Positions 3,038-23,005 of a stretch of DNA of 24,000 nucleotides are shown here, in pieces. The notes beneath the pieces are model-generated. The model saw nothing but the letters and a program-made list of their open reading frames with translations, had not been told where the DNA came from and did no database searches. The translations under genes and the position numbers were made by a program. Position 1 is the first letter of the stretch. Each line of letters starts with the position of its first letter. The DNA is from Patescibacteria group bacterium. GTDB taxonomy: Bacteria; Patescibacteriota; Saccharimonadia; Saccharimonadales; OMJO01. The stretch lies in NCBI GenBank assembly GCA_038064135.1, contig JBBTTS010000004.1:3677-27676 (forward strand), given 5' to 3'.

Positions 3038-3808
3038 ATGGTTCAACTTGACTGGCCAAAAATCCTAAAACCTACTCCTGTAAGTAACCTTTTGGCAGTT
3101 ATTGTACAAATTCTTAGCGCGTTTTTTATTTATTTATCATCACAATTTTTTGGACTTTTATTGTTCTCGGCGTATTTGATGCTAAGTGAAGGCTCTTTAG
3201 CTAATTTTGAAACCTTAGCAAATTCAATTTATGGGCAATTTACCATAAGTCTAATGATAAACGGCCTTGTGCTAGCAGAGTTGCGGTTGGCACTAAAATG
3301 GACGAGATTACGCTTTAATGACATTGGCTGGCGTGCACCTACATTTCGGGATGCATGGTTGGCAGCAGCCGGATTTACGGTTTATTTTCTAATCTATATT
3401 TTTATATATGATTTTGTTAATAAATATATTTCACAGGTAGACGTAGGCCAAAAGCAACAAATTGGCTTTGAATCGGCCAGTCAAACCAGTGAACTTGCTT
3501 TAGTTTTTGTGAGTTTGGTAATTCTACCGCCAATAATTGAAGAACTACTTTTCAGGGGATATTTATATGGTGGTTTGAGGTTCATTGGAAAAATTAAAGC
3601 AGCAGTTATTGTAAGTATTTTGTTTGCGGCTGCTCATTTGCAATTGGGCAGCGGCGCACCGCCACTATGGATTGCGGCAATAGATACAGGTTTGTTGTCA
3701 CTTTTTTTGGTATATCTTAGGGAAAAATCGGGTGGAATAATGGCCCCAATAGGACTACACATGATCAAGAATTGCCTTGTGTTTGTGTCAATATTTATTG
3801 TCACTTAA
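3038..3808 (+). CDS. CPBP-family (CAAX/Abi-like) intramembrane glutamic protease
   Basis: Polytopic membrane protein with EELLFRG (EExxxR), FAAAHL (FxxxH) and HMIKN (HxxxN) motifs in the canonical order. Confidence 0.85.
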   Translation: MVQLDWPKILKPTPVSNLLAVIVQILSAFFIYLSSQFFGLLLFSAYLMLSEGSLANFETLANSIYGQFTISLMINGLVLAELRLALKWTRLRFNDIGWRAPTFRDAWLAAAGFTVYFLIYIFIYDFVNKYISQVDVGQKQQIGFESASQTSELALVFVSLVILPPIIEELLFRGYLYGGLRFIGKIKAAVIVSILFAAAHLQLGSGAPPLWIAAIDTGLLSLFLVYLREKSGGIMAPIGLHMIKNCLVFVSIFIVT

Positions 3809-5687: not shown

Positions 5688-7202
5688 ATGGCTACACTTA
5701 AAGATTATCGTGACGAACGATTACGCAAACTTGACCAGCTAAAAAAACTCGGCATAAACCCATATCCAGCAAATACCAGCCGCACCCACTCTTGCTGCGA
5801 AATTAACGAAAAATTTAGCGATTTAGAAGGCCAGCCCGCAACGGTGGTCGGGCGGATTAAGGGAATCCGAAAATTCGGTAAGATTGCTTTTATTGTCTGC
5901 GCTGATGCCAGCAGCCAACTGCAGTTATTTTTTCGTGAAGGCGGCATTAGCCAGCCCGATCACTCTAACAGTGAACTAGCTATGGAACATTTGCCACTAC
6001 TTGATACTGGTGATTTTATTGAAGCATCAGGAATTGTAATTAAGACGCAAACTGGTGAGATTTCGTTAGAAGTAAATAATTTAAGATTATTGACAAAATC
6101 TTTACGCCCGTTGCCAAGTACTGTTGATGGATTTACAAATAAAGAAGAGCGTTTCCGTCGTCGATACATCGACACGAATGTTAATAAAGATGTGTATGAA
6201 CGCTATATTCGCCGTAGTAAATTTTGGCAGGCAACGCGCGACTTTTTAAACGAACGAGAGTTTAATGAGATAAACACTCCTGTACTGGAACATACCACCG
6301 GAGGTGCAGACGCTAATCCGTTCGTAACACATATGGATGCACTAGACGAGGATTTTTATTTGCGCATAAGCCATGAATTACCTCTTAAACGGTTGGTTGG
6401 TGGTGGATACGAAAAAGTTTATGACATTGGCCCTCGGTTTAGAAACGAAAATTACACTGAGGAACATTTGCCAGAGCACATTGCCATGGAGTGGTATTGG
6501 GCGTACGCCAACTGGCAAGATGGTATGAAGCTCATGGAAGAACTATTTTCATATGTACTTGGAAAAACATTTGGTTCACAGAAGTTCAAGGTGCGAGATT
6601 TTGAGGTAGATTTTTCAAAACCATGGGCAAAGCTAGATTATCAACAAGTAATTCGTGACGAATATGGCATTGATGTGTTTGAATGCACGCTTGAGCAAGT
6701 ACAAAAAGCTCTGCATGACCATAAATTAGAAGTTGAAAAATCTGATAACTTGGCAAGGGGAATCGACAAACTTTGGAAGCGAATCCGTGCCAGCCATGCC
6801 GGCCCTTCTTGGCTAATTAATACCCCACTATTTATCAGCCCGTTAGCGAAATCAAACCCTAATGATCCTAATACAGTCCAGCGATTCCAAGCTGTTGTTG
6901 CCGGCAGCGAGATATGTAATGGTTACTCAGAGTTGAACGATCCAATAGATCAACTAAATCGTTTTACCGAACAGCAAAATATGAGAGATGCCGGTGACGC
7001 TGAAGCACAAATGCTTGATATAGACTTTGTAGAAATGTTGGAGTACGGTATGCCACCTACGTGTGGATTGGGCTTTTCGGAAAGGGTTTTTTGGATATTT
7101 GAGGGCGTTACTGCCCGCGAAGGTGTTCCATTCCCGCATCTCCGACGTGAAGTTGACCAAGTCACCAAATCCATCTACCCTGATCTACGTCTTGAGTCGT
7201 AA
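5688..7202 (+). CDS. lysS: Lysyl-tRNA synthetase, class II
   Basis: N-terminal OB-fold anticodon-binding domain (VVGRIKGIRKFGKIAFI), class II motif 2 (YDIGPRFRNE), and the motif 3 region (PPTCGLGFSERV); 504 aa. Confidence 0.95.
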   Translation: MATLKDYRDERLRKLDQLKKLGINPYPANTSRTHSCCEINEKFSDLEGQPATVVGRIKGIRKFGKIAFIVCADASSQLQLFFREGGISQPDHSNSELAMEHLPLLDTGDFIEASGIVIKTQTGEISLEVNNLRLLTKSLRPLPSTVDGFTNKEERFRRRYIDTNVNKDVYERYIRRSKFWQATRDFLNEREFNEINTPVLEHTTGGADANPFVTHMDALDEDFYLRISHELPLKRLVGGGYEKVYDIGPRFRNENYTEEHLPEHIAMEWYWAYANWQDGMKLMEELFSYVLGKTFGSQKFKVRDFEVDFSKPWAKLDYQQVIRDEYGIDVFECTLEQVQKALHDHKLEVEKSDNLARGIDKLWKRIRASHAGPSWLINTPLFISPLAKSNPNDPNTVQRFQAVVAGSEICNGYSELNDPIDQLNRFTEQQNMRDAGDAEAQMLDIDFVEMLEYGMPPTCGLGFSERVFWIFEGVTAREGVPFPHLRREVDQVTKSIYPDLRLES

Positions 7203-7228: not shown

Positions 7229-7948
7229 ATGATTGAGGTAAATAACGTAACCAAAGTTTATGGTAAAAAGCAAAATACCTTTATGGCCTTGGATAACGTT
7301 AATTTTCAGTTAAGCGAAGGCAGCACAGCAGCAATTATAGGCAAGAGCGGTTCTGGTAAAAGTACACTAATGCATGTTATGAGTGGACTTGATCACCCTA
7401 CATCCGGCAGTATTGTTATGCAAGGCAAAGAACTTCACGAATTAAAATCCAAAGCTATGGATGCGTTTCGTGCGCGTGAAATGAGCTTTATATTTCAAGC
7501 TTTTTTTGTAGAACCCAATCAAACTGTGTATCAAAATGTTTTATTGCCACTCGAAATTGCCAACACTCCGCGCCGAAAGCGTAAAAAAATGGTACTAGAA
7601 GCTTTAAAAGCAGTTGATTTAACTGACAAGATTGACAGCAATGCTAATAATCTTTCTGGTGGTCAAAAGCAACGTCTAGCAATTGCTAGATCAATCGTAA
7701 ATAAACCTAAATTAATTTTTGCTGATGAGCCAACCGGTAATTTAGATAGTTCAACCGGAGATATGATCATTGATTTATTATTTTACCTAAATAAAACTTT
7801 GGGCTGTACATTAGTTGTCGTGACACATGATGAAGAACTTGCCAGCAGATGCCAAACCCAGATTCGCCTTAAAGACGGACGCATTGAAAGCATATCTGAA
7901 AAAAGAATTCGAGCCAAAGTAAGCCCTAAAAAGGCTAAAAATAAATGA
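7229..7948 (+). CDS. ABC transporter ATP-binding protein, MacB/LolD (type VII) family
   Basis: Walker A GKSGSGKST, signature LSGGQKQR, Walker B LIFADEPT, H-loop VTHD. Overlaps the next gene by ATGA (TGA stop at 7946-7948). Confidence 0.9.
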   Translation: MIEVNNVTKVYGKKQNTFMALDNVNFQLSEGSTAAIIGKSGSGKSTLMHVMSGLDHPTSGSIVMQGKELHELKSKAMDAFRAREMSFIFQAFFVEPNQTVYQNVLLPLEIANTPRRKRKKMVLEALKAVDLTDKIDSNANNLSGGQKQRLAIARSIVNKPKLIFADEPTGNLDSSTGDMIIDLLFYLNKTLGCTLVVVTHDEELASRCQTQIRLKDGRIESISEKRIRAKVSPKKAKNK

Positions 7949-9315
7949 GTATCTCGGATATTATAAGGCGTTCTGGTCGAAGCTTAAAAAATGCTAAAGC
8001 GCGGACAATTCTTACGGCTATGGCAATCGCTGTTGGTACGTTTGCATTAACACTAACGCTTGCTGCTAGTAATGGCGCGCAAGGGTTTGTAGATGAAATA
8101 ATTAGTGAAAATTTTGACCCTGCAGAGCTAATTGTTGCAAATGACAATGCTGTTTTTGGAAGGGGTGATACAACTAAACCCAAAGAATATAATCAAGATT
8201 TCAGTGGTGCACTCAGCCAAGCTGGAGCTCCGATCCAAATCGAATACATAAATGACGAACAAATCGAACAGATTAAAACTGTAACAGGTGTGAATGAAAT
8301 TCGTGAAGGAATAGACCTTAACTTAGAGTATTTAACCCGTACTGGGCAAAAAAAATATATTGGCACCGTTAGCGTTTTTAATCCATTTCAGAAACCAGAT
8401 ATATTAGCAGGTGAAATACCAAAAAAATTAACTGATGCAAAGGTACTTTTGCCAGAAGCTTTCTTGGAGCCGCTTGGGTTTAAGAGTGCAGTCGAAGCTG
8501 TCGGTAAGCAAATAGTGTTGGCGGTTCGGAAACCTGCCGATCCCGATCAAATCAGGAAGATACTTCAAAAAGGTGTATTGATTGATCAAGCCGAACTTGA
8601 CAAAGCCAGCCAATCTCAGGTTAGTGAGGAAGTATTTACAATATCCGCAATTCTAAAAAAACCTACAACCTCTCAACCGGGCACTGAACTGTATAGCTTT
8701 ATAGGAATCGATGACGCCAAGCGCATAAATGATTTGGCAACAAAAAATACCGACATTTTCAGAAAGTATCAATACGTTTTCGTAAACGTAAAAGATGGCG
8801 ATGACCAAACTGTTCTTAAAGGTGTACAAGATAAATTAAAAGACATGGGATTCGTCTCGCAAAGCGCCAAAGACACCCAGGAATTTTTATTTAGGATAAT
8901 TGGTATATTGCAAGGAATTGTAGCTGCATTCGGTATGATTGCAGTAATTGCATCGGTTTTTGGAATAGTAAACACCATGTACATTAGTGTATTGCAACGG
9001 ACTCGCGAAATTGGTTTGATGAAAGCACTTGGCATGCGCAGTCGTGACATTAGTAGGTTATTTAGGTTTGAGGCAGCCTGGATAGGTTTTTTGGGCGGGG
9101 CAATTGGATCACTTTTGGCGCTTCTGGTCGGCTCGGCTTTAAACCCTTGGATCACAAAGCAGTTAGATTTAGGCGAAGACAAGCTCCTGGTTTTTAAACC
9201 TACGCAGATAATAATACTAATTGTATTATTGATGATCGTGGCAACTTTGGCAGGGCTTTTGCCAGCACGCAAAGCTGCCAAGCTTGACCCAATCGAAGCG
9301 CTCCGAACCGAGTAG
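7945..9315 (+). CDS. ABC transporter permease, MacB/FtsX family, with a large extracytoplasmic domain
   Basis: One N-terminal TM (ILTAMAIAVGTFALTLTLAA), a roughly 270-aa soluble domain, then three C-terminal TMs with the FtsX-domain signature (LQRTREIGLMKALGMRSRDI). Confidence 0.85.
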   Translation: MSISDIIRRSGRSLKNAKARTILTAMAIAVGTFALTLTLAASNGAQGFVDEIISENFDPAELIVANDNAVFGRGDTTKPKEYNQDFSGALSQAGAPIQIEYINDEQIEQIKTVTGVNEIREGIDLNLEYLTRTGQKKYIGTVSVFNPFQKPDILAGEIPKKLTDAKVLLPEAFLEPLGFKSAVEAVGKQIVLAVRKPADPDQIRKILQKGVLIDQAELDKASQSQVSEEVFTISAILKKPTTSQPGTELYSFIGIDDAKRINDLATKNTDIFRKYQYVFVNVKDGDDQTVLKGVQDKLKDMGFVSQSAKDTQEFLFRIIGILQGIVAAFGMIAVIASVFGIVNTMYISVLQRTREIGLMKALGMRSRDISRLFRFEAAWIGFLGGAIGSLLALLVGSALNPWITKQLDLGEDKLLVFKPTQIIILIVLLMIVATLAGLLPARKAAKLDPIEALRTE

Positions 9316-9356: not shown

Positions 9357-9914
9357 ATGAAAAAGTTGGTTTTGTTTATAATAATACTGACAGCTGCATC
9401 AAGCGGATATTTTATTTACTCGTCTATAAAAAATAATTCAGAATATCCAGGCTCAGCTATCTCTAGCCCGACTATAAAATCTGAAAGTAAATATGCAAAT
9501 CAGGGTTATGAAAAAATTCCAGATAGTTTATATAGTAATACAAGTATTACCTCATTAGATTTGTCCAATAACAATATAGGATCTTTACCATCAGAAGTCG
9601 GTAAGCTAAGCAGACTGACCAGCTTGGATGTTAGTAATAATAGATTAAAAAGTTTACCTGCCGAGATTGGTAAAATGACTCAACTAACACTACTGAACGC
9701 AAGCCAAAATGAAATGACCGACTTAATCGCTGAAATTGGCAAATTAAAACAGCTAGAAACATTGAATCTAAGTAATAATTCGTTAACCGATTTACCAGAC
9801 GAACTATTACAGCTAACTAATCTGAAAACATTAGACTTATCTAACAACCCAATTAATCCAGACGAGATTATTAAACTAAAGTCTAATCTTTCATCAGCAA
9901 ACATTATCAACTAA
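9357..9914 (+). CDS. Membrane-anchored or secreted leucine-rich-repeat (LRR) protein
   Basis: SD AAAGGAG lies 10 nt upstream. The hydrophobic N-terminus is MKKLVLFIIILTAASSGYFIY. Five 23-aa repeats follow of the form LxxLDLSNNxLxxLPxEIGKLxx, starting at aa 64, 87, 110, 133 and 156. Confidence 0.85.
   Translation: MKKLVLFIIILTAASSGYFIYSSIKNNSEYPGSAISSPTIKSESKYANQGYEKIPDSLYSNTSITSLDLSNNNIGSLPSEVGKLSRLTSLDVSNNRLKSLPAEIGKMTQLTLLNASQNEMTDLIAEIGKLKQLETLNLSNNSLTDLPDELLQLTNLKTLDLSNNPINPDEIIKLKSNLSSANIIN
9507..9881 (+). repeat. In-frame 69-nt periodic coding repeats (LRR units)
   Basis: Protein-level 23-residue periodicity (ITSLDLSNNNIGSLPSEVGKLSR / LTSLDVSNNRLKSLPAEIGKMTQ / LTLLNASQNEMTDLIAEIGKLKQ / LETLNLSNNSLTDLPDELLQLTN / LKTLDLSNNPINP...). 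Confidence 0.8.
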
Positions 9915-9965
9915 CGATCTAATTTATTGATGTGATTAACACTATAACTCGCTATTCAACAGGTG

Positions 9966-9974
9966 TGCTATAGT
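9966..9974 (+). promoter_or_regulatory. Extended -10 promoter (TGcTATAGT) 6 nt upstream of ATG 9981; leaderless-type
   Basis: TGCTATAGT at 9966-9974, no SD. The box is the right arm of a perfect 9-bp inverted repeat (9938-9946 / 9969-9977). Confidence 0.45.
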
Positions 9975-9980
9975 GTTGCC

Positions 9981-10877
9981 ATGGCTAACAAGAAGACAAC
10001 ATCTACCAAAAAGTCAAAAGTAAAATCTACCGGAGTTAGTAAAAAATCATCAACTAAAATAGCAGATTCAAAAGTTACTTCAATTAACAAAAGTTTTAAA
10101 TTGAAAGGTAGCACATACATCGAACAAACTAGAATGCTACAAATATTGAGCATTCCGATTTATATAGGTACCGCAATTGCAGCTTGGTTTATGATGGCAA
10201 GCACTACATTTCCACTAACTTTGTCACACCGGACTAAAAACATTCTGGCTAGTCAAAACAGCACAGTATTTTCGCCTGCATTTCATGTGATATATGATAT
10301 TCAGTTACGTTATTGCATAATAGCAACGTTAATAATTTTAGCCTTATTTGCAGCGGCGTCAGCGTTAAAAATGCCGAAAGAATACGCTCAAGCTGTAGCA
10401 AAAAAAGTAAATCCTTGGCGATGGATAACGATAGGTATAACCGGTGCAATCTTTGTTAATATAGTTAGTTTGCTAAATGGGCTTAGTGACATTGCAGCAA
10501 TTAAATTCAGTAGTTTTATTGTGTTTTTAGCCGCGATTGTTGCCTGGCAAGTCGAAAGACAACACGTAGTTGGCGGTAAAGCCCCAAAAATTACGGGTCA
10601 ACTTAGCATATTATTGGCATTTCTACCGTGGGTAACGATACTCGGCGCGATGTTCGGAACTTATTTTTACGGATTGGTTAGATCACCATGGTATGTTTAT
10701 GCAGGATCAGCAGTATTCTTAATTGCAACATTTGATGTAATTTTAAATAGTATTATGTATTTTAAGGCTAAGAAAAATTGGAAAAACTATTCATTCATAG
10801 ATCGTAATGCTCAGTTGACTGTTTTTTTCGCCGTAATTGTGCTGAGCGTAATACTAATTAGTGGCTTGCCAAAATAG
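9981..10877 (+). CDS. Heliorhodopsin-like 7-TM protein lacking the retinal-binding lysine, with a Lys/Ser-rich N-terminal extension
   Basis: Seven hydrophobic helices. By-eye collinearity with heliorhodopsin blocks: NPWRW (start of TM3), GLSDIAAI, AWQVE, FLPW, PWYVY, NWKNY, DR before TM7, and a terminal ISG. The start is moved to ATG 9981 because the ORF-track GTG at 9963 lies upstream of the -10 box. Confidence 0.65.
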   Translation: MANKKTTSTKKSKVKSTGVSKKSSTKIADSKVTSINKSFKLKGSTYIEQTRMLQILSIPIYIGTAIAAWFMMASTTFPLTLSHRTKNILASQNSTVFSPAFHVIYDIQLRYCIIATLIILALFAAASALKMPKEYAQAVAKKVNPWRWITIGITGAIFVNIVSLLNGLSDIAAIKFSSFIVFLAAIVAWQVERQHVVGGKAPKITGQLSILLAFLPWVTILGAMFGTYFYGLVRSPWYVYAGSAVFLIATFDVILNSIMYFKAKKNWKNYSFIDRNAQLTVFFAVIVLSVILISGLPK

Positions 10878-10897: not shown

Positions 10898-11590
10898 GTG
10901 AAATTACATCGCTTTTATGTGGCAAATAAGTTTGATCTAAAACATAATTTTTGGATTCATGATTCGGCCTTGGTTCATCAGATAAGCAGAGTGCTTAGGC
11001 TTCGTATAGGTGAGGATATAGTTCTGTTCGACGGGCAGAACACTGACAGGTTATATAAAATAAAAGATGCCAACCCCCTTGAAGTACATGTCGAATTAGT
11101 CACTGAATTTGAGCGAAAAGTACCAAAAAAAGATATTTACCTATTATGGTCATTGCTTAAAAAAGATAAAAACGATTGGGTAATTCAAAAATGCACCGAA
11201 CTTGGGGTGAGTCATTTTATTCCAATGTTGAGCGAGCGCACCGAGAAAATCGGTTTCGATGTCGAGAGAGCAGTGAAGATAACAATAGAAGCGGCCGAAC
11301 AGTGTGGTCGTAGCGATATACCTACTGTTCATGAACCCCTAAAACTTTCGTCGGCTCTTGAAAAATTTGCTCACAGTGTTCAACTTTTTATATGCGAGCA
11401 AGATTCAGACAATCCTGATGCTAAGTTCGACTCAAAAAAACCTCTAGGGGCAGTGATTGGCCCGGAAGGTGGCTGGAGCGATACCGAGAAGCAGTTATTC
11501 ATAGATCAAAAACTTCAACATCTGAATTTGCACGATTTCACCTTGCGCGCCGAAACCGCCTGCGTCGCAGCCGTCGCAAAGCTCCTCTAA
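10898..11590 (+). CDS. rsmE: 16S rRNA (uracil1498-N3)-methyltransferase RsmE (SPOUT family)
   Basis: GTG start with SD AAGGTGG 7 nt upstream. N-terminal HRFYV PUA-like domain, and C-terminal IGPEGGWSDTE and TLRAETA motifs typical of RsmE. Confidence 0.85.
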   Translation: MKLHRFYVANKFDLKHNFWIHDSALVHQISRVLRLRIGEDIVLFDGQNTDRLYKIKDANPLEVHVELVTEFERKVPKKDIYLLWSLLKKDKNDWVIQKCTELGVSHFIPMLSERTEKIGFDVERAVKITIEAAEQCGRSDIPTVHEPLKLSSALEKFAHSVQLFICEQDSDNPDAKFDSKKPLGAVIGPEGGWSDTEKQLFIDQKLQHLNLHDFTLRAETACVAAVAKLL

Positions 11591-12306
11591 TAGTCGTCTG
11601 GATTATAAAAAAGTTTATGTTCGGTAAACACGAGGTTGTCTTGGCTGCAATATTCGAATGTTTCACGCATACCTTGGAATACTTTTTTCTGTGCATCAAT
11701 CTCGGCAATGGTGAGCCATGCGTTTTTGCCACCCTCTATCTCTTCAGTTAAGATACCACGAAAGTTAGTTGCCTTAATCAACAAAAATAGCTTATCCTCG
11801 AGCATTTCACCGTTGTCTTCGCGGTAATCCATTTTGTGATATAGCCCTCGGTATTCCAGATCGGCCCCTAGGCCCGTTTCTTCTTTTAGTTCACGCTGTG
11901 CGGCTTCGGTAATTGTTTCGCTCCAGCGCATTTTTCCACCGATGCGCGCCCAATAACCGCAATACGGGTTTTTTAGCCGTTGTTGTACCAAGAACTCTAA
12001 CTCATTTGTACCGCGCCGTGTACGCCATCCAGTTATGATTACAGATACTTTTGGCTGGCGCTCGACGGTATTTGTGTCGGTGTCGAGCTTGTTGGCAAAT
12101 TCTTTGCCTTTGATACTAAGCTTGTAACGTCCAGTACTTATTTTGTCGACGTATCCAAGCTCTACGAGTCTAGCTATATGAAACTTAAAATGATCACTGT
12201 CTAGTCCGGTTGGTTTCTGAAGTTCAGAAAAACCACCATTTGGCTGAAAAAGCAGAGCTCTAATTATACTCATTTGGGCATCATGGATTTTTACTTCGTG
12301 TGACAT
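11587..12306 (-). CDS. Winged-helix DNA-binding domain fused to a Nudix hydrolase domain
   Basis: N-terminal MarR/ArsR-like wHTH (IIRALLF..GFSELQKPTGLDSDHFKFHIARLVELGYV). The Nudix box GKMRWSETITEAAQRELKEETGL is complete (Gx5Ex7REUxEExGU). SD GAGGAG lies 5-6 nt upstream of the ATG. Confidence 0.85.
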   Translation of the reverse strand: MSHEVKIHDAQMSIIRALLFQPNGGFSELQKPTGLDSDHFKFHIARLVELGYVDKISTGRYKLSIKGKEFANKLDTDTNTVERQPKVSVIITGWRTRRGTNELEFLVQQRLKNPYCGYWARIGGKMRWSETITEAAQRELKEETGLGADLEYRGLYHKMDYREDNGEMLEDKLFLLIKATNFRGILTEEIEGGKNAWLTIAEIDAQKKVFQGMRETFEYCSQDNLVFTEHKLFYNPDDY

Positions 12307-20063: not shown

Positions 20064-20768
20064 ATGATATTACTCGACAGGGTAACAAAAGTTTACGGCA
20101 AATCCAACAACGCGCTTGATCGTGTAAGTTTGCACGTCGAAGCTAAAGAATTTGTAATTATTGTTGGCAAAAGTGGTGCCGGAAAATCTACATTATTAAA
20201 GCTGCTTACCCGCGAGGAACGTCCAACTAGCGGTAAAATTGTCGTGGGCGGGCTTGATTACGATAAATTAAAAGACAAAGATATCCCACTTCTGAGGCGA
20301 AAAATCGGCGTGGTATTTCAAGACTTTAAATTATTACCAAACCGAAATGTATTCGAAAATGTAGCTTTTGCACTGGAAATTGTAGGCTATGGTAACAGAG
20401 AAATTCAGCACACAGTTCCAAGAGTTCTTGATATTGTAGGACTAAAAGGAAAAGAGAAGCGAATGCCTTTGGAACTTTCTGGTGGTGAACGTCAACGTGT
20501 GGCTATTGCAAGAGCTATTGTGCGTCAGCCAAAAATATTAATAGCCGATGAACCCACAGGTAATCTTGACCCAAAACACGCCTGGGATGTCATTAAAGTT
20601 TTAGAAAAAATTAATCGTTTCGGTACAACTGTACTTTTAACAACTCATAACCAAGATATAGTTAACAAACTCAAACGTCGAGTAATAACTATCGAAGATG
20701 GTCGAATTGCAAGCGATCGAGCAAACGCTAAATATTCAAACCAAACAAATCAGGCTAAATTACAATGA
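20064..20768 (+). CDS. ftsE: Cell-division ABC ATPase FtsE
   Basis: Walker A GKSGAGKST, signature LSGGERQR, Walker B ILIADEPT, H-loop TTHN. ATGA overlap with ftsX. Confidence 0.9.
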   Translation: MILLDRVTKVYGKSNNALDRVSLHVEAKEFVIIVGKSGAGKSTLLKLLTREERPTSGKIVVGGLDYDKLKDKDIPLLRRKIGVVFQDFKLLPNRNVFENVAFALEIVGYGNREIQHTVPRVLDIVGLKGKEKRMPLELSGGERQRVAIARAIVRQPKILIADEPTGNLDPKHAWDVIKVLEKINRFGTTVLLTTHNQDIVNKLKRRVITIEDGRIASDRANAKYSNQTNQAKLQ

Positions 20769-21709
20769 GTCATCAATTCATCACATTTTGGCGAATTATA
20801 AAAGCTGGTATGCAAAACTTTGCCAGAAGTTTGGCGCTTGCAACCGCCGCCATTGCCGTAATGGTAATCACACTTACAATCGTATTATTTTCGGCGATAG
20901 CAAATTCAACCTTTACATACACAGTGCAGGGACTTACCGACAAAATCGATATATCAGTATATTTAAAAGATGAAGTTTCTGATTCACAACGTGACAAATT
21001 AGTTAACAATATTAAGCAACTTCAAAATGTTAAGAGTGTAAACTATTTAACAAAAGAACAGGCGTTAGAAGTCTACAAAGAAGATAATAAAAATGACATA
21101 GATTTACTTCTTGCGATTTCACAAACAGACAATCCGCTGCCGCAAACCATCCGCATTAAACCAGTAGACCCCGATAAGATCAACGAAATCAAAAGCTTTT
21201 TAGACAAAGAAGACATTAAAGCACTTCAGTCAGATGAAACATCTTATTCGGGCGCTCGGCAAGACGCAATAGATAAAATTGCAAAAGCTGCAAAATTTTT
21301 ACGACGAGCGGGTTTGGTGGGTGTAGTTGTTTTTGCGTTAGTATCGATGTTAATTATCTTCAACACTATCCGAATGTTAATTTTTAATCGTCGAGATGAA
21401 CTTACAATCATGCGGTTGCTTGGGGCAGGCAGTTGGTTTATAAAGGGCCCGTTTGTGGTTGAGACAATACTTTATGGAATAGTCTCTGCGGTAGTTTCGG
21501 TAAGCCTTTGTAATGCCGTGTTTGCTATTTCAGCCAATGCCTTTGAGGCAAGTAGTTTGGGCCTACTAGATATTGGTTATGCAAGCAAATATTTTGCAGA
21601 TCACTTCTGGTGGATATTGTTGATTCAGCTTGCAATTGGTATACTTATAGGTGCCGCATCCTCCCTAATTGCCACGCGGCGCTACCTGAAATTTAAGACC
21701 ACGAAATAA
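20765..21709 (+). CDS. ftsX: Cell-division permease-like protein FtsX
   Basis: N-terminal cytoplasmic segment, TM1, an extracellular FtsX-ECD-like domain (ISVYLKDEVSDSQRDKLVNNIKQLQNVKSVNYLTKEQALEVYK), then three C-terminal TMs. Confidence 0.87.
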   Translation: MSHQFITFWRIIKAGMQNFARSLALATAAIAVMVITLTIVLFSAIANSTFTYTVQGLTDKIDISVYLKDEVSDSQRDKLVNNIKQLQNVKSVNYLTKEQALEVYKEDNKNDIDLLLAISQTDNPLPQTIRIKPVDPDKINEIKSFLDKEDIKALQSDETSYSGARQDAIDKIAKAAKFLRRAGLVGVVVFALVSMLIIFNTIRMLIFNRRDELTIMRLLGAGSWFIKGPFVVETILYGIVSAVVSVSLCNAVFAISANAFEASSLGLLDIGYASKYFADHFWWILLIQLAIGILIGAASSLIATRRYLKFKTTK

Positions 21710-21802
21710 AGCTCTAAATATTAATAAAAACCATCAATTAAACCCGCGAAAATGGGGGTAGCTTATAGTCCCCTGGGCTTGATAAAGCATAAGAGGTGTG
21801 AT

Positions 21803-23005
21803 ATGATAAATATGGCTATGAAAACACAAAAAAAGAAAAATAGCCTAATTCAGATACTCCAACGACTACACCTAGGTGTTGTTGTACTTGTATTAGCTTT
21901 TAGTTTCGTGGCTGCTCGTACAGTACTGGCCGACAGATTCACCGACCAAATTAATCAAATCAAGCAAGAAAATAACGTTAAACAAGGCCGACTAGACGTA
22001 TTAAAAGTCGAGGCCGATGGTCTGCAGGCCACAATTAGTGCTTTGCAATCTCAAATTAATGGACTTCAGGCCCAGATAAATGAAAACCAAGCCAAAAACG
22101 ACCAGCTTCAAAAAGATATTATCGAGGCCGAAGCCGAGCTAGCCAAGCAAAAGAAACTACTTGGACAGAGCATTAAAGCTATGTATTTAGAGGGCCAAAT
22201 TAGTACCATCGAAATGTTAGCCAGTAGCAATGACTTAAGTGAATTTGTCGACAAACAACAGTATCGCGATGCAGTTAAAACCAAGATTAAAAACACAGTC
22301 GATAAAGTTACAGCCCTAAAACAACAACTAAAAACTCAAAAAGAAGAAGTCGAAAGGCTGTTAAAGGAACAAAAAATTCTTCAGGCAAACGTTGCTTCAC
22401 AGAAAGCCGAGCAAGACAGGTTGCTAGGCCTAAATGTTGGCGAACAGTCAACTGTTAATCAGCAAATGAAAGATAATTATGCTCGTATAGCTGAGCTTCG
22501 TCGCCAACAGGCTATTGAAAACGCCAAAATATTTAACGGTGTGCAGGCAGGAATTCCAGGCGGTGGTGGCTATCCTTGGGGCAACGCGTACTGTGTACAC
22601 ACTGGCCAGGTAGGCGGTGATTGCTGGAATTACGATTGGTATTTCAACGGTAGCCCATGGGATAGTTGGGGTTATGGGTTCAGAAATTGCACAAGCTGGG
22701 TAGCCTACAAATTGGCACTAGACGGAAAAAGCGGTTTTACATATTTAGGAAACGCAGCTGATTGGCCATGGGGAGCTCAAGCTCGTGGAATTTCGGTGAC
22801 ATACGGGAACGGTGCTCGCCCCGGAGATGCCGTCGTTAACCCAAATGGTTATTATGGCCATGTCATGTATGCCGAAGCGGTGCTCGAGGATGGTCGTGTG
22901 GTAGTAAGTGACTACAACCGAGCAGGTGATGGTTTATACCGCGGTCCAGAAGGCGGTAGCGCAATGGCTGTTTCACAGGCTGGTTTGTACTTTATTCACT
23001 TCTAA
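21803..23005 (+). CDS. Secreted peptidoglycan hydrolase with an N-terminal coiled-coil and C-terminal CHAP domain (PcsB-like architecture)
   Basis: SD AAGAGGTG sits 4 nt (TGAT) before ATG 21803; the ORF-track start 21752 lacks an SD. TM/signal segment LHLGVVVLVLAFSFVAARTVLA. About 200 aa of heptad-rich Q/K/E/L sequence. The CHAP domain carries catalytic Cys (FRNCTSWVAYKL) and His (YYGHVMYAE). Confidence 0.85.
   Translation: MINMAMKTQKKKNSLIQILQRLHLGVVVLVLAFSFVAARTVLADRFTDQINQIKQENNVKQGRLDVLKVEADGLQATISALQSQINGLQAQINENQAKNDQLQKDIIEAEAELAKQKKLLGQSIKAMYLEGQISTIEMLASSNDLSEFVDKQQYRDAVKTKIKNTVDKVTALKQQLKTQKEEVERLLKEQKILQANVASQKAEQDRLLGLNVGEQSTVNQQMKDNYARIAELRRQQAIENAKIFNGVQAGIPGGGGYPWGNAYCVHTGQVGGDCWNYDWYFNGSPWDSWGYGFRNCTSWVAYKLALDGKSGFTYLGNAADWPWGAQARGISVTYGNGARPGDAVVNPNGYYGHVMYAEAVLEDGRVVVSDYNRAGDGLYRGPEGGSAMAVSQAGLYFIHF

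Follow-up and report, generated by a model that had tools for sequence, protein, structure and literature searches.

A lysine-less heliorhodopsin of Candidatus Saccharibacteria as a putative light-independent member of its family

Here, we describe a gene of Candidatus Saccharibacteria encoding a heliorhodopsin (HeR) in which the retinal-binding lysine is replaced by valine and the counterion glutamate by threonine, and which is maintained by purifying selection. Its product is very probably a functional, retinal-free protein with the HeR fold. Our preferred reading goes further and regards it as a "blind" HeR that, as a scaffold or regulator, carries on those HeR tasks for which light is not needed; taken as a whole we hold this statement at somewhat better than even odds (roughly 0.55). 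The particular mechanism, a constitutive membrane scaffold or regulator, is put forward tentatively, at a little under even odds.

The gene and its origin

The coding sequence lies on the + strand at 9981..10877 of the analysed stretch of DNA (24,000 nucleotides, hereafter the window), running from the ATG at 9981 to the stop at 10877 and specifying 298 amino acids; it was assigned from the open reading frame and its translation, from Pfam (PF18761) and from Foldseek. A program-made list of open reading frames puts the start at GTG 9963, but ATG 9981 is favoured because the N-terminus MAT(T)KK is found family-wide. The product is deposited as MEK7602667.1 with the locus tag AAB459_00285 under the NCBI annotation "hypothetical protein", and the identical protein is present in NCBI/JGI/ENA. 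The contig, 107,897 bp long, bears the name Hain_H51_01um, which stands for Hainich groundwater well H51, 0.1 µm fraction (PMC8672522), and the aquifers concerned are called light-deprived in PMC12960796. The source habitat of this lysine-less HeR is a dark aquifer, an assignment resting on one contig name.

Heliorhodopsin fold

A sequence-only reading of this DNA had recognised a seven-helix protein of the HeR family by eye, and both profile and structure comparison bear this out. The Pfam profile Heliorhodopsin (PF18761) matches with E=1.2e-14 and 54.7 bits (gathering cut-off 26.7) over profile positions 18-217 of 242; the type-1 profile Bac_rhodopsin has no Pfam match to MEK7602667.1 even at E up to 10. 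A phmmer search of the PDB returned heliorhodopsins as sole matches (48C12 with E=1e-4), and the alignment to 48C12 recovers the family blocks proposed by eye (RWITI/RWVEY, GLSDIAAI/GIADIVAL, AWQVE/GWLQE, FLPW/IVPW, PWYVY/PGFVY, NWKNY/KWSNY, DR/ER). Aligned along its whole length, a family profile of 100 sequences matches 48C12 with E=1.3e-44 and TaHeR with E=1.6e-49, and the family-conserved TM7 lysine falls on K241 and K238, respectively. The NCBIfam equivalog NF038020 "HeR" has a cut-off of 100 bits, which is reached neither by the protein (57.2) nor by two orthologs (59.7 and 44.2); lysine-bearing Saccharibacteria HeRs score 91-122 bits and canonical-like members 229-294.

The AlphaFold model based on the 100-sequence alignment has a pLDDT of 90.8 and seven transmembrane helices (residues 46-71, 109-141, 145-165, 171-198, 203-229, 237-262 and 270-295); a run with an 8-sequence alignment gave a pLDDT of 56.9 and was discarded. 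Superposition on a HeR crystal structure, proposed as a check by the sequence-only reading, yields TM 0.90 and rmsd 1.9 Å against TaHeR (6is6, Foldseek). The best 10 Foldseek matches are all HeRs, and type-1 rhodopsin structures reach a TMt of 0.48-0.61 with E of at least 0.009. Both the model and the end-to-end profile alignment with TaHeR and 48C12 place the seven-helix core at 10116..10868 (+; residues 46-296). It includes the extracellular β-hairpin between TM1 and TM2 that is a hallmark of HeRs (10206..10304, +; residues 76-108, strands 76-86 and 97-108 in the model); the family-conserved A100 of this hairpin and R110 at the start of TM2 are both present.

With 48C12 (6su3/6uh3) and TaHeR (6is6) the protein shares the fold (TMt 0.80-0.90), the predicted N-in topology, the order of the sequence blocks, the TM1-TM2 β-hairpin and the residues R104/W105, E149, Y92, N101, Y226, D127 and P172/W173 (48C12 numbering). 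It differs from them in an identity of only 17-19%, in numerous pocket residues (see below) and in a 45-residue polybasic N-terminal tail that both of them lack. This tail (9981..10115, +; residues 1-45), already noted as a Lys/Ser-rich extension of about 45 residues, contains 13 K, 10 S and 7 T with a net charge of +12, and is predicted to be disordered and cytoplasmic: residues 1-44 have a pLDDT of 53-62 and no predicted secondary structure in the AlphaFold model. The cytoplasmic placement suggested by the earlier reading agrees with the positive-inside tally, in which 24 K+R fall on predicted cytoplasmic segments against 4 outside, and which supports, by computation, the inverted topology with a cytoplasmic N-terminus and an outside C-terminus. 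Of 154 family representatives, 105 have a tail of at least 30 residues, with a composition of K 25%, T 19%, A 16% and S 11%. The basic tail is thus a feature of the whole subfamily and is not peculiar to the lysine-less clade.

Remodelled retinal site

In TM7, the segment V281-F-F-A-V285 (10821..10835, +) stands in place of the SxxxK retinal-binding motif, V281 being at the position of Ser237 and V285 at that of the Schiff-base Lys241 of 48C12, as given by profile alignment and by direct reading of the codon (gta, 10833-10835). The whole helix (residues 270-295) is free of lysine and the nearest one is the C-terminal K298. In TM3, the motif R147-W148-I149-T150 (10419..10430, +) keeps the R104/W105 pair of 48C12, and T150 (codon 10428-10430, in RWITI) falls into the column of the counterion Glu107 in the HMMER profile alignments. 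Valine for lysine, threonine for glutamate and a last helix devoid of lysine had all been called from the letters by the sequence-only reading, and all three calls stand. Misalignment as the cause of the apparent lysine absence was ruled out by the profile alignments and the kept subfamily positions.

Compared with 48C12, the replacements comprise K241V, E107T, S237V, S76L, H23Y, H80A, Y108I, N138V, M141A, I142A, F206T, Q213S, Y233A and W246V, and N207 is likewise missing. Most of the residues lining the retinal have thus been exchanged, along with Ser237 and Ser76, which stabilise the Schiff base. The polar residues of the Schiff-base cavity that are highly conserved in all HeRs are S76, S111, H23, H80, N101, Y108, N16, E230, R104 and Y92 (PMC7049168). 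From this set the protein keeps R104, Y92, N101 and E230 (the last as Asp), and it shows S76L (L120), H23Y (Y61), H80A (A124), Y108I, N16Q and S111T. Its match to the subfamily consensus is 0.57 at pocket positions versus 0.68 at non-pocket positions, the corresponding values for members with both lysine and acid being 0.80 versus 0.76, and about 40% of its pocket positions differ from that consensus. The summed side-chain volume of 25 pocket positions amounts to 3632-3733 cubic angstroms in lysine-less proteins versus 3509 ± 159 in lysine-bearing relatives; since this is an increase of about 1 SD only, pocket filling cannot be claimed and a cavity for another ligand may remain. We infer from the sequence that the protein cannot attach retinal through a Schiff base and does not act as a photoreceptor.

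Evolution of the lysine-less clade

The Saccharibacteria/CPR HeR subfamily corresponds to the Patescibacteria-dominated cluster C17 of Bulzu et al. (10.1101/2021.02.01.429150), and CPR "new clades" are presented in PMC9166423. Our protein shows the marks of this subfamily: the "MATTKK..." tail, the extracellular-face motifs G167, D170, K175, T227, G231, SPWYVY and G295-L296, and the C-terminal "LI(V/S)GL". The subfamily-specific stretch S235-P-W-Y-V-Y240 (10683..10700, +), which spans the loop joining TM5 to TM6 on the extracellular side and the first part of TM6, is fully kept and invariant in the homologue alignment; across 154 other representatives W237 is conserved in 90% and Y240 in 97%, and the protein has both. 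Among the 37 positions conserved to at least 70% in the rest of the subfamily it retains 29, including the cytoplasmic cluster Arg147/Trp148/Glu192/Tyr270/Asp274, and the chromophore lysine is one of the eight lost. Unlike the majority of the subfamily, which has the lysine (115/157) and an acidic counterion (102/157), its clade carries V and T, reaches about half of the HeR-model score and has diverged faster.

Within the 157 family representatives the Schiff-base site is occupied by K in 115, R in 18 and V in 6, so that 42 are without lysine, and the counterion site by D in 74 and E in 28; T occurs in only three, which make up the clade described here. An NJ/Fitch estimate gives about 21 lysine losses among 154-157 representatives, and on this estimate lysine loss is recurrent in the Saccharibacteria HeR subfamily. 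The acidic counterion is absent in 19 of 24 non-basic lysine replacements versus 34 of 115 lysine-bearing members (Fisher p=1.1e-5), and 16 of the 18 K-to-R variants have kept it. This offers a simple, testable structural rule, with the acid retained when K turns into R and lost when a hydrophobic residue takes the place of K.

An ortholog alignment, suggested earlier as a way to see whether both changes are fixed in a clade, shows V and T to be common to two syntenic orthologs (P0002 and P0003), which are 71-74% identical to our protein. For the HeR gene of the three orthologs pS is about 0.75 (saturated) and pN 0.16-0.19; for comparison, pN is 0.135-0.185 in rsmE and 0.26-0.33 in the CAAX protease gene. 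The lysine-less HeR gene is under purifying selection with a pN like that of rsmE. Given this selection in three orthologs, the gene is best read as a derivative that has kept a function for which light is not required; a pseudogene is ruled out by saturated pS versus low pN and by the subfamily positions kept.

Lysine-bearing homologs in Saccharibacteria MAGs sit in the block GreA-LysRS...HeR...RsmE-PDDEXK-SerRS-HPF-SecA. Because our gene occupies the same chromosomal slot as the HeR genes with K and D in other Candidatus Saccharibacteria, it is a positional ortholog of these genes and not a stray paralog. Genome-resolved syntenic orthologs outside the clade have K in 8/8 and additionally D in 7/8. 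The ratio of HeR identity to housekeeping identity is 0.49 between lysine-less and lysine-bearing lineages, 0.68 among the lysine-bearing ones and 0.85 within the lysine-less clade; these sequence ratios describe a lineage with fast divergence followed by renewed constraint.

Genomic context

An extended -10-like element, TGcTATAGT (9966..9974, +), is located 6 nt upstream of the ATG, and the form TGnTATAGT is invariant in the three orthologous loci, a conservation that is notable because their synonymous sites are saturated. It is probably the gene's own promoter, giving a leaderless mRNA or one with a very short leader. Further upstream, the conserved 16-mer TTGATGTGATTAACAC (9927..9942, +) is identical at 15 of 16 positions in the window and the loci L001 and L002, and may be a regulator site or a UP-like element. 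A consensus scan around the gene gave 20 promoter-like sites versus 14.8 expected and 4 terminator-like sites versus 4.9.

The gene rsmE (10898..11590, +), assigned to the 16S rRNA m3U1498 methyltransferase by Pfam and NCBIfam matches, begins 20 nt downstream, and the consensus scan found no terminator-like site in this gap. The HeR gene is likewise followed by rsmE in L001, in L002 and in further loci of Saccharibacteria, and rsmE is probably co-transcribed with the HeR gene. On the upstream side follows a MacB/LolCDE-type ABC transporter pair (7229..9315, +) composed of an ATPase (7229-7948) and an FtsX-type permease (7945-9315). The pair is directly upstream, with a gap of about 60 nt, in L001 and L002, and is near in one of eight lysine-bearing genome loci (L010). 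A functional tie to this MacB-type transporter, by analogy with OcHeR-OmrDE, was considered and dropped, the adjacency not being kept in lysine-bearing orthologs. Apart from the ABC pair the HeR neighbourhood consists of housekeeping genes in the loci examined, with no conserved specific neighbour that would indicate a partner. Co-occurrence with a functional pump paralog in tandem or with a flotillin gene, a mark of Rh-noK and FArhodopsins, is not seen here: the ORFs of the 24-kb window with 90 aa or more that were scanned versus Pfam include neither a second rhodopsin nor a flotillin/SPFH gene.

Comparison with other retinal-free rhodopsins

We found no paper describing lysine-less or retinal-less heliorhodopsins in the literature, but HeR cases are possibly included in the count of Yamauchi et al. 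2019, which puts Rh-noK at about 600 in a set of 5,558 microbial rhodopsins "including HeRs" (quoted in PMC7714340). Rh-noK (Yamauchi et al. 2019, cited in PMC7714340, PMC10308929 and 10.1101/2025.04.29.651185) resemble our protein in that the Schiff-base lysine was lost and the protein kept; they are expressed, and a regulatory role was proposed. Rh-noK are type-1 proteins, whereas ours belongs to the HeR family and its gene replaces the ortholog, with no second rhodopsin in the window. Flotillin-associated rhodopsins (FArhodopsins), for which a role in membrane organisation or regulation has been proposed (PMC10308929, 10.1101/2025.04.29.651185), likewise represent a retinal-free fold in a streamlined genome with many pocket changes besides the lysine. 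They are, however, type-1 rhodopsins, flotillin-linked and paralogs of proton pumps, and none of these three properties applies here. In MORN-HeR and Znf-HeR (Bulzu et al.) the HeR core also bears an additional N-terminal module on the cytoplasmic side, interpreted as serving interaction or output, but the module of our protein is a disordered tail rich in Lys/Thr/Ser/Ala instead of a folded MORN or zinc-ribbon domain.

Alternative readings

The changed pocket invites the question of whether it serves another ligand. A small hydrophobic molecule (carotenoid, quinone or lipid) bound non-covalently would make the protein a chemosensor or ligand carrier, and the bulky-to-small changes M141A, I142A, F206T, Y108I and Y233A, together with the pocket volume that would let a cavity persist, are in line with this. 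Moreover, a carotenoid-binding site is reported in most HeRs (10.1101/2025.11.27.691015), and retinal-less type-1 opsins have been suggested to sense other stimuli (PMC10308929). We nevertheless rate this reading as unlikely: no ligand-related genes are nearby, and the bulkier changes S76L, S237V, A210I, L238F, M115F and G145A fit a partial filling. That the protein is still a photoreceptor, with retinal or another chromophore bound non-covalently or via another residue, is very improbable. In type-1 Rh-noK, as cited in 10.1101/2025.04.29.651185, putting the lysine back revived both the binding of retinal and proton pumping, so that such pockets can remain competent, and the HeR subfamily has a conserved lysine in TM4 (K175). 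This residue, however, is near the extracellular end of the helix, and it is no substitute for the TM7 lysine because it is conserved with or without the latter. Lysine, counterion, Ser237, Ser76 and both His are gone, as is the consensus residue at some two fifths of the pocket positions; the source is a dark aquifer, and rhodopsin-encoding Saccharibacteria were reported to be without blh, the retinal-producing enzyme (PMC9296517).

A light-independent role in membrane housekeeping, for example as a phospholipid scramblase useful for scavenging host lipids, is improbable as well. The HeR gene is syntenic and widely kept in the small Saccharibacteria genomes examined, and pN/pS indicates that HeR function outlives the loss of the chromophore site. 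Opsin folds are able to scramble lipids without retinal, and Saccharibacteria depend on host lipids. For a proteorhodopsin, light-independent scramblase activity is reported (PMC10730872); for HeRs, no report of such activity was found in the literature surveyed, and scrambling leaves the conserved polybasic tail and the extracellular motifs unexplained. Finally, the gene could be a decaying relic, a pseudogene in the making after loss of photoreception in the dark. Its clade indeed contains the most divergent HeRs of the subfamily (44-60 bits in NCBIfam versus 91-122 in lysine-bearing orthologs) and its stem branch is accelerated. But the frame is intact in three lineages with saturated synonymous sites, pN is as low as in rsmE, conservation relative to housekeeping proteins is higher within the clade (0.85) than among lysine-bearing orthologs (0.68), 29 of the 37 subfamily-conserved positions are kept and the promoter-like element upstream is conserved, so that we give decay hardly any credence.

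Conclusions

The biological role of HeRs has been open since 2018, and few partner-binding functions have been reported. Characterised HeRs bind and modulate partner proteins, namely glutamine synthetase, photolyase and an ABC transporter (PMC9529153, PMC11109279). The lysine-less HeR described here would perform the light-independent share of such a job as a constitutive scaffold or regulator in the membrane, probably as a dimer and held in one signalling state, and would engage its partner via the cytoplasmic loops and the basic tail. Permanently dark life in the aquifer probably permitted or favoured the loss of the chromophore site. Since selection preserves an HeR devoid of this site in a dark-aquifer bacterium, the fold probably has a further role in which light plays no part.

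Loss of the chromophore site combined with rsmE-like conservation separates light sensing from the rest of the HeR job, and comparison with the lysine-bearing positional orthologs would give direct access to what the fold does independently of light. The "opsin without retinal", known in type-1 rhodopsins, is now extended to a third rhodopsin family. A broader view, possible but doubtful, is that a HeR core function free of light and retinal has been isolated repeatedly through the approximately 21 lysine losses, in a gene that is passed on vertically, keeps its synteny and encodes a polybasic cytoplasmic tail; at least one lysine-less lineage, the one from the dark aquifer, shows a burst followed by constraint. 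If true, lysine-less HeRs would be natural "dark-locked" HeRs whose partner or activity would show the actual role of HeRs; candidate activities are lipid scrambling and the use of the basic tail to tether a partner, be it a nucleic acid or a protein, to the membrane.

Family membership and fold

The gene (9981, ATG, to 10877, stop; + strand) encodes 298 amino acids, and a protein of identical sequence carries the accession MEK7602667.1 and the title [quoted passage not shown]. A GTG start at 9963, taken from the mechanical ORF list, is less likely because all relatives begin with MAT(T)KK..., which fits the ATG. By sequence and fold this protein is a member of the heliorhodopsin (HeR) family, yet it is probably no functional heliorhodopsin in the photoreceptor sense. 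In HMMER the Pfam profile PF18761 (Heliorhodopsin) matches at E=1.2e-14 with 54.7 bits (gathering cut-off 26.7), and in a phmmer search against all PDB sequences heliorhodopsins are the sole matches (48C12 at E=1e-4). The alignment to 48C12 recovers each motif correspondence on which the sequence-only reading had based its assignment to a seven-transmembrane HeR-family protein. When 1.84 billion cluster representatives were searched exhaustively by HMMER with a profile built from the query plus seven relatives, 243 proteins came out at E<=1e-30; a profile from 100 of them gives full-length alignments with TaHeR (E=1.6e-49) and with 48C12 (E=1.3e-44).

The AlphaFold2 model reaches pLDDT 90.8 and pTM 0.83 with a 100-sequence alignment (pLDDT only 56.9 with eight sequences) and contains seven helices, the HeR-type β-hairpin between TM1 and TM2 and 44 disordered N-terminal residues. 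In Foldseek the ten best PDB matches are heliorhodopsins, led by the TaHeR structure 6is6 (target-normalised TM-score, TMt, 0.90; rmsd 1.9 Å; 254 columns), and type-1 rhodopsins score far lower (TMt about 0.5–0.6). The distribution of Lys and Arg (24 on predicted cytoplasmic segments, 4 outside) agrees with the inverted, N-in topology. The annotation as hypothetical protein results from the NCBIfam “HeR” equivalog model, in which the query attains 57 bits and thus falls under the 100-bit cut-off.

Chromophore site and recurrent lysine loss

In the profile alignment the conserved TM7 lysine of the family coincides exactly with K241 of 48C12 and K238 of TaHeR. This position is occupied in the query by Val285 (codon gta, 10833–10835), its TM7 contains no lysine, and the counterion Glu107 is replaced by Thr150 (RWITI versus RWVEY), all as had been read from the sequence. 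Among the residues listed as conserved across heliorhodopsins by Kovalev et al. (PMC7049168), R104, W105, E149, Y92, N101, Y226, D127, P172 and W173 are kept (48C12 numbering), E230 as Asp, and the replacements comprise S237V, S76L, H23Y, H80A, Y108I, S111T, N138V, M141A, I142A, F206T, N207F, Q213S, Q216Y, Y233A and W246V. Judged by these alignments, the protein is shown to lack the residues required for a protonated retinal Schiff base.

Lysine loss is, as far as the phylogeny can indicate, recurrent among the 157 representatives of the Saccharibacteria/CPR subfamily, which have Lys (115), Arg (18) or another residue (24) in the Schiff-base column. Fitch parsimony on a rough neighbour-joining tree places Lys at the root and counts about 21 changes to non-Lys, a number that is only indicative for such a crude tree. 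An acidic counterion accompanies Lys in 81 sequences (absent in 34), Arg in 16 (absent in 2) and a non-basic residue in 5 (absent in 19); it is absent far more often in non-basic than in lysine-bearing members (Fisher p=1.1e-5), and the Arg variants, which hold on to the acid, are distinct from the non-basic ones (p=2.5e-5). Since non-basic replacements mostly lack the acid, the double change in the query (K to V, E/D to T) looks like compensated removal of a buried ion pair. The Arg variants (including P0007, P0008, P0020, P0023, P0047 and P0048) may represent “blind” heliorhodopsins in which an Arg–Asp/Glu salt bridge imitates the pairing of protonated Schiff base and counterion.

Opsins without retinal have already been described in the type-1 family, including Rh-noK, FArhodopsins, haloarchaeal opsin-like proteins and fungal ORPs; the query differs from Rh-noK and FArhodopsins in belonging to the HeR family. 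Patescibacteria heliorhodopsins are already known as a distinct cluster, and published screens looked for SxxxK and listed the most frequent motifs. Full-text searches brought up no account of a heliorhodopsin without the lysine, though a 2019 count gives about 600 Rh-noK in a total of 5,558 rhodopsins “including HeRs”, and such cases may be among them.

Genomic context

A scan of GTDB species genomes revealed eight relatives (six titled Candidatus Saccharibacteria or Saccharimonadales, one “Patescibacteria group bacterium” and one “bacterium”), all with the TM7 lysine and seven with Asp at the counterion site. They share with the window the block (UppS-RseP-CAAX-ProRS-)GreA-LysRS ... HeR ... 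(RlmD-like) RsmE-PDDEXK-SerRS-HPF-SecA. Judged by this gene order, the query is a positional ortholog of the lysine-bearing Saccharibacteria heliorhodopsins.

A promoter-like extended -10 element TGnTATAGT (9966–9974), 6 nt before the ATG, and the 16-mer TTGATGTGATTAACAC (9927–9942) are conserved in the window and in two orthologous loci of the lysine-less clade (L001, L002), where synonymous sites are saturated. The position of the -10-like element and the lack of an evident Shine-Dalgarno sequence upstream of the ATG suggest a leaderless mRNA; the conserved elements are perhaps a regulator site.

A MacB/Lol-type ABC pair lies directly upstream of the HeR gene in the lysine-less clade (7229–9315 in the window, MacB/LolCDE-like) and near it in only one of eight other genome loci. 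The window holds a second, separate FtsX-fold system, a genuine FtsE/FtsX pair (20064–21709) followed by a CHAP-domain peptidoglycan hydrolase (21752–23005). A small membrane-anchored or secreted leucine-rich-repeat protein just upstream of the query (9357–9914; also on the JGI contig L014) and a NUDIX-domain protein with a winged-helix-like N-terminal region just past rsmE (11587–12306, minus strand) are absent from L001 and L002 and therefore lineage-specific insertions. The lysyl-tRNA synthetase slot contains a class II enzyme in the window (5688–7202; TIGR00499, 432.8 bits, above cut-off) and a class I enzyme (TIGR00467, 372.7 bits; PF01921) in the two closest orthologous loci, L001 (6293–7825) and L002 (6306–7835). 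Flanking genes are 75–86% identical, and this looks like in-place non-orthologous displacement between close relatives. The class II type also occurs in loci L005, L009 and L011; L007 and L008 have a 510-aa ORF without match to class II.

In several lysine-bearing Saccharibacteria orthologs the HeR stop is followed directly, or almost directly, by the start of a gene for an RlmD-like 23S rRNA (uracil-C5) methyltransferase of about 416 aa (L004 2202/2203, L007 8684/8685, L010 4144/4145, L012 946/947, L005 8945/8949), a spacing that suggests translational coupling. The lysine-less clade has no RlmD-like gene at this place.

Selection and possible function

The close clade comprises only three 90%-identity clusters, the query and its orthologs P0002 (73% identical) and P0003 (71%), whose loci are syntenic with the window; Val at the lysine site and Thr at the counterion site are common to all three. 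Decay of the gene is an unlikely rival explanation. Its pN is 0.16–0.19 at a saturated pS of about 0.75, equal to that of the neighbouring rsmE (0.135–0.185), and the CAAX-protease gene is higher (0.26–0.33); by these rates the gene is functional and under purifying selection, not decaying. At similar housekeeping divergence HeR identity depends sharply on the pair type: 32% (housekeeping 66%, ratio 0.49) for lysine-less versus lysine-bearing pairs, 47% (70%, 0.68) between lysine-bearing members and 71% (84%, 0.85) within the lysine-less clade. The ratios show the pattern of rapid change along the stem branch of the clade with constraint restored afterwards, which speaks for a shift in function and not for decay.

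The query retains 29 of the 37 positions conserved in at least 70% of the other 154 representatives, on the extracellular face (A100, R110, G167, D170, K175, T227, G231, R234, P236-W-Y-V-Y240, G295, L296) and in a cytoplasmic cluster (Y135, R147, W148, E192, Y270, R275); the Schiff-base lysine, Tyr233 and a few others are lost. The match to the subfamily consensus is lower in the pocket (0.57) than outside it (0.68; 0.80 and 0.76 in members with Lys and acid). Less probable alternatives to a retinal-free heliorhodopsin are a pocket repurposed for another ligand, membrane housekeeping, e.g., lipid scrambling, and residual photoreception. [quoted passage not shown]

Two features of the extracellular face are subfamily-specific: K175 (codon 10503–10505; 86% Lys, Leu132 in 48C12), near the extracellular end of TM4 and not far from the conserved Asp170 (D127 in 48C12, at the dimer interface), and the conserved EF-loop insertion T227-x-x-Y-G231, absent from TaHeR. 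The polybasic N-terminal tail, which measures 30 aa or more in 105 of the 154 representatives (K 25%, T 19%, A 16%, S 11%; net charge +0.28 per residue), is by its distribution a subfamily trait also kept by the lysine-less clade.

Photolyase is one partner of characterised heliorhodopsins. Glutamine synthetase is bound and modulated by a heliorhodopsin (PMC9529153), and an ABC transporter is modulated through positively charged residues of cytoplasmic loops (PMC11109279). Because characterised members bind and modulate partners, our preferred interpretation is a constitutive scaffold or regulator in the membrane, which would act through its basic tail and cytoplasmic loops. Given the missing retinal-site residues and purifying selection, the light-independent derivative proposed by the sequence-only reading is the most likely one, and the partner precedents suggest that it may serve as a scaffold or regulator. 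We infer that the query is a retinal-free heliorhodopsin which would perform the light-independent part of the family's role.
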